Virus record (IMG/VR): IMGVR_UViG_2877251553_000001
Span: 1 to 64,000 of that record
Length of the DNA stretch: 64,000 nucleotides
DNA from: a virus
Lineage: Duplodnaviria > Heunggongvirae > Uroviricota > Caudoviricetes
Reading direction: 5' to 3' (one strand)
In this document: piece after piece, positions 57,358 to 63,809 of the stretch
Layout of the letters: every line of letters starts with the position of its first letter
How positions within the stretch are numbered: the stretch's first letter is position 1
The notes under the pieces: generated by a model
The model's database searches: none
What the model saw: the letters and a program-made list of their open reading frames with translations, nothing else
What the model was told of the DNA's origin: nothing
Made by a program: the position numbers and the translations under genes

Positions 57358-57621
57358 TCATTTCGCACTCTCCACATCGATTAAACCGATATCTATCAGG
57401 GAGGTAACTTTTTGTAGCCAGCTATTGATTACTGTCGCCTGTTCCCCTCCCACCGAGGGAACAATCTCATTCATCACATGAACCAGACCTGTGCGCGCTC
57501 TGGTAAGCCGTTCAGTCGCGCAATCTGCGGGAGTGAATGTGTCTGGATATGGCTCTTCACGCCCCAGCAATGATTCAATTTCCAGCTCACACGGATGACG
57601 ATAAATTAAGTTGATATTCAT
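57358..57621 (-). CDS. hypothetical prophage-remnant protein
   Basis: 87-aa ORF in a minus-strand gene string. Confidence 0.3.
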   Translation of the reverse strand: MNINLIYRHPCELEIESLLGREEPYPDTFTPADCATERLTRARTGLVHVMNEIVPSVGGEQATVINSWLQKVTSLIDIGLIDVESAK

Positions 57622-57869
57622 TTTTCACCCCCAAGAATTACCAGCTCGGCACGGGCATCGTTAACCAAAGATGAGCACGCTTTAATCGCATCCACGACAT
57701 CAGTAGCGTCCATTTCTTCAGCCGAAAGACTGACAGCAACCAGGACAGCCGCTGCTTGCTCGATTAATTGAAGTGCGGACGTAAGGCGAGGGGTATTAAT
57801 TGAGTTATTCATTGGTTGCCCCCGTTTTTCCTGGCATTTCGCCACCTTCCAGCAGGAAATGAACGTCAC
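57618..57869 (-). CDS. hypothetical prophage-remnant protein
   Basis: 83-aa ORF, overlapping stop/start with neighbour. Confidence 0.3.
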   Translation of the reverse strand: MTFISCWKVAKCQEKRGQPMNNSINTPRLTSALQLIEQAAAVLVAVSLSAEEMDATDVVDAIKACSSLVNDARAELVILGGEK

Positions 57870-58872
57870 GAACGGCGAGATCCAATATCGCGAGTAACGC
57901 CTTCAGTCTTTCGTCTCGTGAGGGAGAGTTGCTCACCAGAATGTCGTTAATCACTTCTGTCAGTGTGATGATCTGGCTTGTGCGTTCGAGGGGATCCATA
58001 TGCACATCGTAGGTTTTAATCATGTGCCACCTCCATGCGGATACGACCAGCAAAAAAGCAGATGTGATCGCGCACCAGAGAACGGCGAGCATCGCGTTCA
58101 GACTCGGCAGCAATATGATGAATTTTGGCGGTAATTGTCGGGCAATCGCGGCGAACTGCGGCGATAATCCAGATAAATTGCGGTTTTTGGGTAGGGGTAG
58201 TAGCCAGCATGTGGCAGCCTCCATTCGATAGCATGTAACGCTACCACCGGAAACGCCAATTTCGCTGGTGGTAGCCCAGACAGGGTTGGCGTAACCGGCT
58301 CGAATGGATACCGGCGCTTCCGAAGAAGCCCCTGCCTGAGCCACCATTGATTGACAAAGGCGCTGGATTATACACCAACGCCCAAAAAATGGGTGAGTCA
58401 GACCTACGACATAAAAAAAGACGCTCGGCGCGTCATATGTCGCCATTCGATTTACCAGGACGCCAATCCCGGCACCCGTTTTATGAGGTGCCTTATAACC
58501 ATAAACCGTGTTGCCGCATAACGGCAAGCTCTTTTTTATGGACTCCGAAAACTCACTATTGGAAGAACCAGAAGCACAGTACATCGCGCTCATTTCGTTA
58601 ACGTCACGCGCGTGGACGAATGTTTTTGTGGAGTCACTACACGAGCTGAAGACATCATCTACGACCAGAAATTTTCTGGCGCAGCCGCTGACCTTCTCAA
58701 TGCTAATATCATCGCCCGAGATTTCTGGTATGGTTAAGGCATCCGTTCCGACCACAAGCAAATGATAAACTTTGCTTGTATCTGCTGTATTAATGCCTGA
58801 CTTTGCCGTCATATTTCTGGATTTTGGCGACATGCCAGCCAGTGAAAATGTCTTCTTCTGGACGGGTATCAT
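57805..58872 (-). CDS. hypothetical protein, paralog of 7649-8485 (probably frameshifted)
   Basis: Shares core AGAGIGVL...[17 protein letters not shown] with the prophage early gene. Confidence 0.4.
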
Positions 58873-59040
58873 TGGTTAACCTCCGCGAACTCCTTCATGA
58901 AACGCGCCAGCGGTTGTACGCATGGCGATTGATACCCGTCGCGATAAAACGTCACTCGGTTGTGAGACACGCTTTCGACAGTAACGAGTGCTCCGTGGGC
59001 ATCTTTGTAGCGTTTTTGTGGTTGTGGTGTTCCTGTTGGC

Positions 59041-59874
59041 TTAGACATTGAGCGCCTCCAGACGCTTGGCGAGCCAGCGTTGCGACAGGCGGGTGAGTTC
59101 TCCTTTGCGCTGCTCATATTCCATGCCCATATCAATTAACGTGATATTGGTGCTTTCGAGATATGAGAGGTGCTCAAGCTGTTCTGCGTTCATATGGTCG
59201 CGAGGTTCGCCAGAATAGCCATTTATCCGCGCCCACTGCTTAGCAGTTAGCCCACCAAGAACGATACGAGAAATCATATTGCTCTCGTTTGTGTAGTGGT
59301 GTTGCTGCGTCGTTTTCCCCATCTCGGCACGGGCCATATTCAGCGCATCGCACATTGGCTTAAAGTTGTTTGCGGCACTGATACGGGCTTTTAGCTGGCG
59401 ACGATAGCGTGCGGCGATTTCAGGCACGCTACGCTGTAATTCTTCCTCGCACTGGATGAAATAACGGCGGATAGCGTGACCCTGATCATTGCGTTCGATC
59501 ATTGCCAGTTCTTTCGCCATTCCGACACTTAACAGATAGTCTTTGCCGGGTCTGCCAGACTGCTTAATCTTGCTGTAAGCCGCGCCATTCGGGCTTTTCC
59601 CCAAATTTGGGGAAATTGTTTTATGGACTGAGTAATCGTGCCCAATGGTGAAGTCATATTCAGAGATGCGATCAGTGATCCATGTAGAGAAGTCTTTTCC
59701 CACGCCCAACGCTTTGTGTAACGCTTTTGCGCTAACAATATTGGTTTCACGCCCACCGATATGACCAGGAATAACCGGGACAATTGCGGCAAATTCATTA
59801 CCGTTAATTGTGCTCAGAGAGGCGTTCAGATGAGGGGCGGCCTCAGAAATTAATCTGCTTTTTTCGATGTTCAT
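59041..59874 (-). CDS. phage antirepressor-like protein (AntA/KilAC-type)
   Basis: 277-aa ORF; N-terminal region resembles AntA-type antirepressor domain. Confidence 0.45.
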   Translation of the reverse strand: MNIEKSRLISEAAPHLNASLSTINGNEFAAIVPVIPGHIGGRETNIVSAKALHKALGVGKDFSTWITDRISEYDFTIGHDYSVHKTISPNLGKSPNGAAYSKIKQSGRPGKDYLLSVGMAKELAMIERNDQGHAIRRYFIQCEEELQRSVPEIAARYRRQLKARISAANNFKPMCDALNMARAEMGKTTQQHHYTNESNMISRIVLGGLTAKQWARINGYSGEPRDHMNAEQLEHLSYLESTNITLIDMGMEYEQRKGELTRLSQRWLAKRLEALNV

Positions 59875-62198: not shown

Positions 62199-62548
62199 GA
62201 CATCAAGAGCGCGGTAGCCTTTTTTAATATTTCATTCTCCATTTCAATGCGTTGTAGCTTTTTCCTCAGCTTACGTATTTCGATTTGTTCTGGTGTTATC
62301 GGAGAGGCTTTTGGTGTTTTGCCCTGACGCTCATCACGCAGTTGTTTGACCCATCCTGTCATTGTGGAAAGGCCAACATCCATAGCTTTGGCGGCATCTG
62401 CCACCGTGTATTTCTGGTCAACAACCAGTTGAGCGGATTCGCGTTTAAACTCTGCGCTAAAATTTCTTTTTTTCATTGGAGCACCTGTGTTGTTCTGAGG
62501 TGAGCATATCACCTCTGTTCAGGTGGCCAAATTCAGTGTGCCACTTCA

Positions 62549-63110
62549 GAACCAGACGTTCGCTCCTACAGCACCAAATCAGGTCTGGGTGGCGGACCTG
62601 ACGTATGTTGCCACACAGGAGGGATGGTTGTACCTCGCTGGCATCAAAGATGTTTATACGTGCGAAATTGTCGGCTACGCCATGGGAGAGCGCATGACAA
62701 AAGAGCTGACAGGTAAAGCCCTGTTTATGGCGCTCAGGAGCCAGCGCCCACCTGCCGGGCTAATCCACCACTCTGATCGAGGTTCACAGTACTGCGCATA
62801 CGATTACCGGGTCATACAGGAGCAGTCTGGTCTGAAAACATCAATGTCGCGTAAAGGTAACTGTTACGACAACGCTCCGATGGAAAGCTTCTGGGGAACG
62901 CTGAAAAATGAGAGCCTGAGCCACTATCGTTTTAATAACCGGGATGAAGCCATCTCAGTAATACGGGAATACATTGAGATTTTCTACAATCGTCAGCGTC
63001 GTCACTCTCGTCTGGGGAATATCTCCCGGCAGCCTTCAGGGAAAAATATCATCAGATGGCTGCTTAAAAAAAGAACAAATGGTAGTGTCCGCTATTGCCA
63101 GTACACCTCA
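62549..63110 (+). mobile_element. IS3-family element fragment (3' part of orfB), truncated by IS911
   Basis: DDE transposase C-terminal half (HHSDRGSQY...YDNAPMESFWGTLKNE); family member not identified; right boundary approximate. Confidence 0.55.
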
Positions 63111-63582
63111 CCGGGTGGCATGGATAAACCCGGAAGAGAGTAAATCAAACCGCGCAATTGGCGTTGCGCTGAATGATACTGCATGTCGCGTATTGAAAAA
63201 ACAAATCGGGAATCATCACCGTTGGGTATTTGTGTATAAGGAAAGCTGTACCAAACCAGACGGAACGAAAGCGCCAACAGTCAGGAAGATGCGGTATGAC
63301 GCAAACACAGCCTGGAAAGCGGCGCTGAGACGAGCAGGTATTGATGATTTCAGATTTCACGACTTGAGACACACCTGGGCAAGTTGGCTGGTTCAAGCCG
63401 GAGTCCCGTTATCAGTGTTACAGGAAATGGGAGGCTGGGAGTCTATCGAAATGGTTCGTCGATATGCTCACCTCGCACCTAATCACCTTACCGAACACGC
63501 ACGGCAAATAGACTCGATTCTGAACCCATCGGTCCCAAATTTGTCCCAGTCAAGAAATAAGGAACGTACTAATGATGTGTAA
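63110..63582 (+). pseudogene. integrase 3' fragment (about 98 percent identical to the C-terminus of int at 1459-2622), truncated by IS insertion
   Basis: ...[17 protein letters not shown]...[10 protein letters not shown]...VRRYAHL... with two substitutions versus the prophage int; followed by TTTAAATCAATAAG-type att junction in inverted orientation. Confidence 0.8.
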
Positions 63583-63809
63583 CTTATTGATTTAAATGGA
63601 TAATAGGAACAATACACATAGGCGATAAGCTTTGTTTTTGTTGCCTTTTTTATTGTTCATTTTTTATAGATACCCCCAAAAGTACCCCCATATCTTTTTC
63701 CGCCCCTGAAATTTGGTTGTTATTCATACAGCATATCAGGCGGTAACGCTCTCCCTTTAACCCACTTATTGTATGATAGTGCTATCCCACAATAAGGAAT
63801 CAGCCAGCC

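Follow-up and report, generated by a model that had tools for sequence, protein, structure and literature searches.

How does a truncated copy of a phage integrase gene come to lie inverted beside a shortened fragment of a tRNA gene, at the far end of a stretch that carries both genes intact? This question is raised by positions 1 to 64,000 of the IMG/VR virus record IMGVR_UViG_2877251553_000001 (Caudoviricetes), a stretch of 64,000 nucleotides (nt) that we analysed over its full length and call the window. The window begins inside proA, followed by the tRNA gene thrW, and an initial annotation, made from the sequence alone, saw at 57358-63608 the inverted remnant of a second prophage related to the one at thrW. 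Here, we find that this region is a composite. We put at roughly 0.8 the probability that three integrative elements were stacked at thrW, namely an older SfV/P22-type prophage (prophage 2), an island with a P4-type integrase and a young SfV-like prophage (prophage 1), and that the array was later scrambled by insertion sequences (IS).

Repeats, both inverted and direct, were called from a self-comparison of the window. Related loci were found by comparing the right end of the window with complete E. coli genomes, and by look-up of the exact AntA protein and of an exact chimeric open reading frame (ORF) of 167 amino acids (aa), both described below. Among these loci, L001, L005 and L006 are E. 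coli genomes, L004 and L003+L014 are IMG/VR contigs, and L015-L034 are complete genomes, 99.6-100% identical to the window in this region; these last include L017 (PSSQ01000001), L020/L033 (CP026840) and L028 (CP026762). The features that bear most directly on the question are these:

1369-1444, plus strand: thrW, tRNA-Thr(CGU), the shared integration target (ARAGORN; Rfam tRNA)
1459-2622, minus strand: int1, the full-length 387-aa SfV-type integrase gene of prophage 1 (Pfam PF00589, E=3e-48)
48643-48694, plus strand: attR of prophage 1, which repeats 47 nt of thrW (anticodon loop through CCA) ahead of the island left arm TTCAAACATC... (direct repeat D2)
63111-63582, plus strand: int2', codons 232-387 and stop of the prophage 2 integrase, a pseudogene (Pfam; sequence comparison)
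63583-63596, minus strand: attL arm of prophage 2, TTTAAATCAATAAG, which recurs unchanged at 1445-1458 next to thrW
63597-63608, minus strand: attR core of the island, its distal repeat of thrW, TCCTATTAT-CCA, 12 of the 17 original nt (alignment with five other genomes; variant table)

The initial annotation described inverted int repeats of about 480 bp, and the self-comparison bears this out: the repeat is 489 nt long, with arms at 1442-1930 and 63111-63599, the left arm being the 3' end of int1 plus the attL arm. By exact count the arms differ at eight of 489 positions (98.4% identity), all within the int reading frame, a length and similarity far beyond chance. Two substitutions had been noted relative to the C-terminus of int1, a figure that holds for amino acids (K379R and G383R) and not for bases, six of the eight differences being synonymous. 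The translation of int2' corresponds to residues 232-387 of 387 and matches Phage_integrase (PF00589) with E=2.5e-31 over profile positions 54-171 of 172. It keeps the catalytic-domain motifs HDLRH (HxxR) and ...RRYAHL (Tyr); gone are the N-terminal 231 codons, the core-binding domain, the region of the first catalytic Arg (ATGLRRSN in int1) and a start codon of its own.

The int homology begins exactly after position 63110, preceded by the bases ...GGTAGTGTCCGCTATTGCCAGTACACCTCA. Position 63110 is the exact terminus (...CACCTCA) of an IS600 fragment, so that the int sequence abuts the insertion sequence and is not part of it, an objection that the initial annotation had itself raised. Across this joint runs the 167-aa chimeric ORF (63079-63582, plus strand), in which the IS600 terminus is fused in frame to int2'; it is an annotated gene in many assemblies. 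This ORF is an exact marker, across strains, of a shared IS600 insertion event. Thus truncated, int2' is dead, an inert pseudogene readable only as the chimeric ORF that starts within IS600.

Three observations place int2' with the SfV/P22-type integrases of thrW: its 98.4% identity to int1, the attL arm TTTAAATCAATAAG, and the presence of the same stub on intact thrW in L027-L031. It matches, at 488-489 of 489 nt, the stub that L027 and L028 have on intact thrW and that L033 has behind the island. It is nearer to other alleles (99.8%) than to int1. Because synonymous differences outnumber non-synonymous ones by six to two, and because the stub is present in relatives without prophage 1, int2' is independent of int1 in origin. 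We therefore agree with the initial annotation that the fragment, inverted relative to both thrW and int1, is a leftover of a second, related thrW phage; it is the relic of the integrase of an older SfV/P22-type prophage 2.

The junction beside int2' had been described as a degenerate phage attachment site. On the minus strand it reads ...GTATTGT-TCCTATTAT-CCA-TTTAAATCAATAAG, as compared with TCCTATTATCGGCACCA-TTTAAATCAATAAG at thrW, and CGGCA is indeed missing, as the initial annotation had stated. The degenerate-site reading itself does not hold up: instead of a phage att site in decay, the junction is the island's distal thrW repeat, to which prophage 2 contributes the adjoining attL arm. 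The two kinds of element share different blocks of identity with thrW, the phage 47 nt from the anticodon loop onward and the island 17 nt from the end of the T loop. Work by Williams in 2002 reportedly described which subsites the P22 and P4 subfamilies of integrases prefer. For islands in tRNA genes, crossover subsites have been sorted into two classes, to which the phage and island blocks correspond (PMC4383910).

The sequence behind the island repeat is not the same in all genomes: E. coli CP131 and L004 have a full-length SfV-type int there, with lambdoid early genes, 18AR0366 has a shorter int stub, 2273-PO3 a CP4-6-type island, and Z1323HEC0422 chromosome. Over loci L001-L006, L012 and L015-L035, the repeat itself occurs in four versions:

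perfect, TCCTATTATCGGCACCA: L012, followed by the island's own left arm
minus 1 nt, ...CGCA...: four loci
minus 4 nt: five loci
minus 5 nt: the window and eleven loci

The loss of CGGCA is therefore not peculiar to the genome of the window, and the 1-, 4- and 5-nt deletions fall at the same spot across different right-hand flanks. Exact-pattern scans of species-representative genomes, a set in which the lineage of the window is not included, returned no match to the junction or to the joint of IS600 and int2'. In L012 (IMGVR_UViG_2617270975_000009, about 9675-9740), the island right arm, the perfect core TCCTATTATCGGCACCA and the island left arm are contiguous, which may be either the attP-like joint of an excised circle or the border of two tandem islands.

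If the junction belongs to an island, where is the rest of that island? Its parts in the window are as follows:

48854-50068, plus strand: P4-type tyrosine integrase, 404 aa (Pfam Arm-DNA-bind_3, Phage_int_M and Phage_integrase)
50129-50195, plus strand: int-alpA RNA motif (Rfam RF02996)
50132-50897: split DUF6387 pseudogene (Pfam)
51286-51483, plus strand: alpA (Pfam)
57097-59986, minus strand: island block B1, inverted relative to the P4-type integrase (Pfam, Rfam and colinearity)
57206-57361, 57358-57621 and 57618-57812, minus strand: small ORFs of B1
57805-58872, minus strand: Ash-family ORF (Pfam)
58264-58351, minus strand: C4 RNA (RF01695) inside the Ash ORF, 79.5 bits (gathering threshold 45)
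58414-58491, minus strand: isrK (RF01394) inside the Ash ORF, 67.1 bits (gathering threshold 50)
58869-59051, minus strand: DUF4222 (Pfam)
59041-59874, minus strand: AntA, PF08346 (Pfam)
63609-64000, plus strand: island right end, inverted, including a motif at 63670-63691 and the start of a 119-aa gene (from 63810 onward)

The minus-strand genes at 57358-59874 are present as the initial annotation described them, including an antirepressor-like gene (AntA) and a paralog of the 7649-8485 gene, albeit a distant one (37% identity over 169 aa). Their assignment to a leftover prophage fails on synteny with E. coli and with close relatives. The antA-DUF4222-ash set directly follows a P4-type int and alpA at thrW in L001, L005 and L006 and in the close relatives L017, L019 and L020. 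Window positions 57097-59997 are colinear with, and 96-97.5% identical to, the islands of L005 and L006, and B1 also holds the tail of the gene upstream of antA. Because of this P4-int/alpA context at thrW and the colinearity with the E. coli islands, the antA, DUF4222 and Ash genes belong to the island and not to a prophage. Compared with phage records, no record covers more than 4% of the 2.9-kb B1 block (2-4% coverage).

Directly after attR of prophage 1 comes TTCAAACATCTCC... and then the P4-type integrase, which is 98.4-98.9% identical to those of L001 and L006; the same spacer and integrase lie directly on thrW in E. coli CP131_Sichuan. At the other end, window positions 63599-64000 are 99-100% identical to the island right end in E. 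coli elements. Three E. coli genomes, those of CP131, O15:H12 2273-PO3 and Z1323, show a gene order that begins with thrW, P4-int, an AlpA-like helix-turn-helix gene, a 143-aa gene, antA/antB, DUF4222 and ash, then several small genes, a large primase, variable cargo, PerC and a pRiA4b-ORF3 gene, ending with the 119-aa gene on the opposite strand and the short repeat of the thrW 3' end. The intact thrW island is recurrent and 16-20 kb long, with antA-DUF4222-ash 13-20 kb from the distal repeat, and its right end is found in 379 of 5426 complete E. coli genomes. Of the P4 hallmark set, int and alpA are present in the window and primase only in intact relatives; psu, sid and delta were not recognised among the 10 island proteins scanned, a subset of the island's proteins. 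A 22-nt motif, ATGGGGGTACTT(A/T)TGGGGGTAT, occurs once near each island end (48801-48822, plus strand, and 63670-63691, minus strand; 2 found, 0 expected), and a related GGTACCCCC stands just before the start of the P4-type int. Both are candidate arm-type integrase binding sites. Excision of the island copy in the window would be very unlikely, as its attachment ends are inverted relative to each other and its distal core is shortened.

How, then, did the B1 block come to be inverted? It is enclosed by insertion sequences:

51816-55840, minus strand: IS66-family element carrying an IS110-family element at about 51821-53339 (Pfam, sequence and segment matches)
55849-57096, plus strand: left copy of IS911, 99.8% identical to RefSeq-annotated IS911 (inverted repeats I1, I3 and I5)
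59987-62548, minus strand: right copy of IS911, interrupted by IS629 (sequence comparison)
60889-62198, plus strand: IS629-type element with a 3-bp duplication, GAC
61224-61340: ALIL frameshift pseudoknot, expected for an IS629-type element (Rfam)
62549-63110, plus strand: the 3' 562 bp of IS600 (IS3 family), with its terminal repeat ...CACCTCA at 63110, 99.8% identical to RefSeq-annotated IS600

In the self-comparison, three inverted-repeat pairs amount to two inverted IS copies, at 55849-57101 and 59982-62548. Both are IS911 (IS3 family), with TGAAGTGG... termini and a 3-bp target duplication, TAT, that is split between the copies: TAT stands at 55846-55848 and its reverse complement, ATA, at 59984-59986. 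The uninterrupted island reads ...GTGATCACTCATAT|TAACCATCTTGCG... (...ACTCATAT|TAACC...) in L005 and L006. As for the remaining flanks, GTTTAC and GAACCA, exactly this pair borders the one IS911 copy of L003 (its left flank there being GTAAAC), and block B1 is uninverted in L003, L017, L019 and L020. On the basis of the split duplication, the L003 flanks and these unflipped relatives, the antA block was flipped by recombination between two IS911 copies, after a new IS911 had inserted in inverted orientation with the duplication TAT. We also considered whether both copies are simple insertions, and rejected this since one flank pair is mismatched (GTT versus TTC). The mismatch is explained by the older copy, the one in L003, which never had a duplication. 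That copy joins island DNA to the interior of IS600, and it therefore sits at a recombinant joint.

The related genomes, some 20 closely related assemblies, display at least five arrangements of the same IS-bounded blocks, which are the island left part, the antA block, int2' with the island right end, the prophage-2 immunity region, and the eaeH/ykgR chromosome. These arrangements can be listed as states:

State (a), L027-L031: proA, intact thrW, attL arm, int2' stub (488/489 nt), full-length IS600 and prophage-2 immunity genes; no island
State (b), L019, L020/L033 and L003+L014: island on thrW, no prophage 1, antA block in normal orientation, one IS911, IS600 fragment, inverted int2', repeat minus 4 nt, inverted island right end, IS66 element, prophage-2 genes in direct orientation
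State (c), L015 and L018: antA block inverted and IS629 present, like the window, but the island directly on thrW and no prophage 1
State (d), the window: as (c), plus prophage 1
State (e), L017: the piece consisting of IS66 and the island right end in opposite orientation

L016, L022, L023 and L024 are arranged as in (c), but each of these loci breaks off within the P4-type int gene, short of the place where prophage 1 would show. In L017-L020 the island lies directly on thrW and prophage 1 is absent; additional joins made by IS, to the eaeH/ykgR region, are present in L021, L025 and L034. The window keeps no more of IS600 than its 3' 562 bp, and L027-L031 have the whole element at this junction. 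Relative to thrW, the island right end, the repeat and int2 of E. coli CP131 are all in normal orientation.

These relatives also extend the view past the window end. L023 (CP026825.1, GCA_002949915.1) is 100.000% identical to window positions 49041-64000 (14,960 nt); beyond that point come the inverted island right end, the IS66 element, and then the C-terminus of an O-like protein, a PerC-like activator and Dam. In L014, L025 and L026, which are nearly identical, the series can be followed further, past RusA and as far as Q. All of these prophage-2 genes have the direct orientation, and they share about 95% identity with prophage 1 (9453-12867). To judge from these loci, most of prophage 2 lies beyond the window end in direct orientation. 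The idea of one inverted unit has to be given up: blocks 57097-59986 and 62549 to beyond 64000 were inverted separately by IS recombination, and the O-to-Q part of prophage 2 (L023, L014) is not inverted at all.

Taken in order, the events may have run as follows. An SfV/P22-type lambdoid prophage 2 would have integrated at thrW, and IS600 would then have landed in its integrase gene. The P4-type-integrase island would have entered thrW next, between the tRNA gene and prophage 2, so that its 17-nt distal repeat became joined to the old phage attL arm and int; the repeat would later have lost 5 nt. IS911 recombination would then have inverted the piece that holds the 3' end of IS600, int2', the distal repeat and the island right end, with loss of much of the island middle. 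The simplest route would be an inversion between two IS911 copies, from the island middle through the 3' part of IS600, followed by IS66-associated loss of the island middle. In the lineage of the window, a second IS911 inserted upstream of antA, recombination with the first copy flipped the 2.9-kb antA-to-Ash block, and IS629 would then have inserted into one IS911 copy. Finally, the new SfV-like prophage 1, with int1, would have integrated into thrW. That prophage 1 came last is suggested by the island DNA that follows its attR and by the close relatives that lack it. The island most likely arrived after prophage 2 and the IS600 insertion, because its distal repeat precedes the prophage 2 attL arm and because the same IS600-cut stub stands on bare thrW in relatives. 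There is a laboratory counterpart in a double lysogen in which SfI integrated immediately upstream of SfX, at the SfX attL site (PMC3306764).

Several points weigh against this history. The proposed order needs the SfV/P22-type crossover to lie in the anticodon loop, which is absent from the island's 17-nt repeat, and that site is itself deduced from the 47-nt block and the subsite classes (PMC4383910). The strains with the stub on bare thrW could have lost an island by excision. The other endpoint of the int2' block inversion is out of view, and later IS66 and IS1 events erased intermediates. L017 is visible only as far as PerC, and int2' itself need not be uninverted there. Moreover, a host-derived repeat that decays after integration does not explain why deleted versions of the repeat recur.

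Among the alternatives, the reverse order, in which the island came first and prophage 2 later used its distal repeat as a secondary attB, is unlikely. The arrangement of island, repeat, full-length int and lambdoid early genes does exist in CP131 and L004, although it is silent on order when taken alone, and the sequence next to CCA (TTTAAATCAA) is similar to the flank native to the chromosome, so that some attB-like sequence would have been available. The repeat, however, keeps at most the last 17 nt of thrW, as against the 47-nt block of the phage; the identical IS600::int2' stub stands on intact thrW in island-free relatives; and in the one documented experimental case the newcomer took the tRNA-proximal site (PMC3306764). 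The proposal of the initial annotation, that 57358-63608 is a single inverted remnant of a second related prophage, with antirepressor and Ash as its early genes and the junction as its decayed att site, is very improbable. It draws on the phage-like character of AntA, Ash and DUF4222, on gene strands that have the sense relative to int2' expected of one inverted unit, and on the Ash/isrK/C4 module that prophage 1 also carries. It is opposed by every uninterrupted copy, with a P4-type int and alpA ahead of these genes at thrW, and by the phage records, none of which holds more than 4% of the block. Nor are the two blocks contiguous, since IS911::IS629 and the IS600 fragment separate them and they were inverted by separate events; the true early and late genes of prophage 2 are elsewhere, in direct orientation.

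It could also be argued that int2' is a recent intragenomic copy of the 3' end of int1, made by way of IS600 or gene conversion, given the 98.4% identity and the direct abutment to an IS end. We give this hardly any credence: of eight differences six are synonymous, other alleles are closer (99.8%) than int1, the same IS600 joint is found in relatives entirely without prophage 1, and int2' has its own attL arm and, in relatives, its own phage genes behind it. An assembly artefact might be suspected in a region so dense with IS copies of 1.2-2.5 kb, yet the chance of this is negligible, as the same junction recurs, base for base, in more than 10 independently assembled complete genomes and in IMG/VR contigs. 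A different kind of proposal concerns the island of the stacked array. Conceivably, though with low odds, the thrW island is a poorly characterised satellite family, defined by P4-type int, alpA, antA, DUF4222, Ash with isrK/C4, and primase, in which lineage-specific repeat deletions travel with the element. If so, strand exchange by its integrase would take place not in the T loop but at or beyond CCA (CACCATT being one example), or else attR erosion would repeatedly lock satellites into the chromosome.

The initial annotation further proposed that recombination between the two int copies could invert the 61-kb interval. This is physically possible, the repeat having uninterrupted identity stretches of up to 131 bp, and it could support a rare RecA-dependent homologous inversion, after which the intact int would be found on the island side and the stub at thrW. 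We found no evidence in its support, and none either way within this strain: no inversion isomer was seen, the int1 protein adjoining proA, in the canonical arrangement, in all 10 of its contexts among the matches listed. The 489-bp repeat is also no more notable than the larger inverted IS copies nearby.

Prophage 1, a young SfV-like prophage, extends from 1445 to 48689 (about 47 kb). Its ends are marked by a 52-nt direct repeat of the thrW 3' half (1399-1450 and 48643-48694, from the self-comparison), and 14 nt separate thrW from int1. From about 1446 to 16300, int1 included, the window is 97.2% identical to phage SfV (positions 1-14856 of the query 1446-25000), and the late region resembles lambda-like Escherichia phages. 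An IS2 copy with a 5-bp duplication, CAGGT, lies at 40987-42317 in the late (tail-fibre) region, and prophage 1 may be defective given this insertion; an IS009 RNA match is found near this copy, at 42810-43008. Just inside attR, a 404-aa ORF (45765-46979, minus strand) occupies the cargo-gene position of SfV-type phages. The Ash-family ORF of prophage 1 carries the same isrK/C4 pair, at 8009-8085 and 8110-8197 (plus strand), above the Rfam gathering thresholds. Two short, diverged matches, 8007-8218 versus 58243-58493, are the only nucleotide similarity between the two Ash genes, and they coincide with isrK and C4.

Some observations on the neighbouring elements may be added. The int-alpA RNA motif lies just 3' of the P4-type integrase and 5' of alpA, overlapping the start of the DUF6387 gene, which is intact (293 aa) in relatives and divided into two ORFs in the window. 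The IS66-family element interrupts the island just before antA, with an 8-bp duplication, ACTCATAT, at 51808-51815 and 55841-55848, and the left IS911 copy comes right after it. The same IS110-family element occurs in two different IS66-family elements, with TnpC of the 530-aa and 512-aa types, in both cases only a few bases within the left terminal repeat (window 51816-53339; L034 13245-14772), which suggests that it targets the IS66 terminal repeat. L003 and L020 have, independently, an IS2 at almost the site where the new IS911 inserted in the window, with its own 5-bp duplication, ACTCA.

Comparison with known systems leaves the locus ordinary. The stacked lysogeny of the Shigella serotype-converting phages SfI and SfX at thrW (PMC3306764) involves the same target next to proA and the same integrase type, and there too the newcomer at the tRNA-proximal att site pushes the older element outward. 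The window differs in that its middle element is a P4-type-integrase island that uses a different thrW subsite (17-nt versus 47-nt repeat), that its oldest phage is fragmentary, and that IS recombination has inverted parts of the array. Under the Islander principle (PMC4383910), prophage 1 fits exactly, with int1 beside thrW and a same-orientation fragment of the tRNA gene 3' end, and the island fits in L001, L005 and L006; in the window, the island's fragment (63597-63608) is only 12 nt long and opposite in orientation to the tRNA gene, so that Islander filters reject it.

The island resembles P4-like satellites and phage-inducible chromosomal islands in its P4-type integrase, AlpA, large primase (in intact copies), size of 16-20 kb, tRNA target, C4-family antisense RNA and lack of capsid and terminase genes. 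The C4 RNA family also includes the P4 immunity RNA. Unlike these satellites, the island, known from gene content alone, has AntA, Ash and DUF4222 and, in some copies, P22-type ejection-protein genes, and the copy in the window is a degraded remnant. Both the island and prophage 1 recall the c4-icd-ant module of P1 and P7 and the isrK of Salmonella in having C4 and isrK next to an antirepressor gene; here, by contrast, the RNAs lie 3' of antA, inside an ORF annotated as Ash family. IS-mediated inversions and deletions occur in IS-rich genomes of the Shigella and enteroinvasive E. coli type. The inverted IS911 copies, split target duplication and alternative arrangements of the window are in keeping with this and are nothing unusual.

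The feature is real but ordinary, an example at base resolution of elements that stack up at a tRNA hot spot and are then inverted and worn down through IS activity, and no function is expected of int2' or of the junction, the latter a fossil. It has little significance beyond correct annotation: the int fragment should carry a pseudogene label, the antA-to-Ash block should go to the island with the P4-type integrase, and the boundary of prophage 1 should be set at 48689. As a case, it shows how a tRNA hot spot records successive integrations, the youngest nearest the tRNA gene, and how IS recombination can leave a displaced tRNA fragment and an integrase stub in the wrong orientation.

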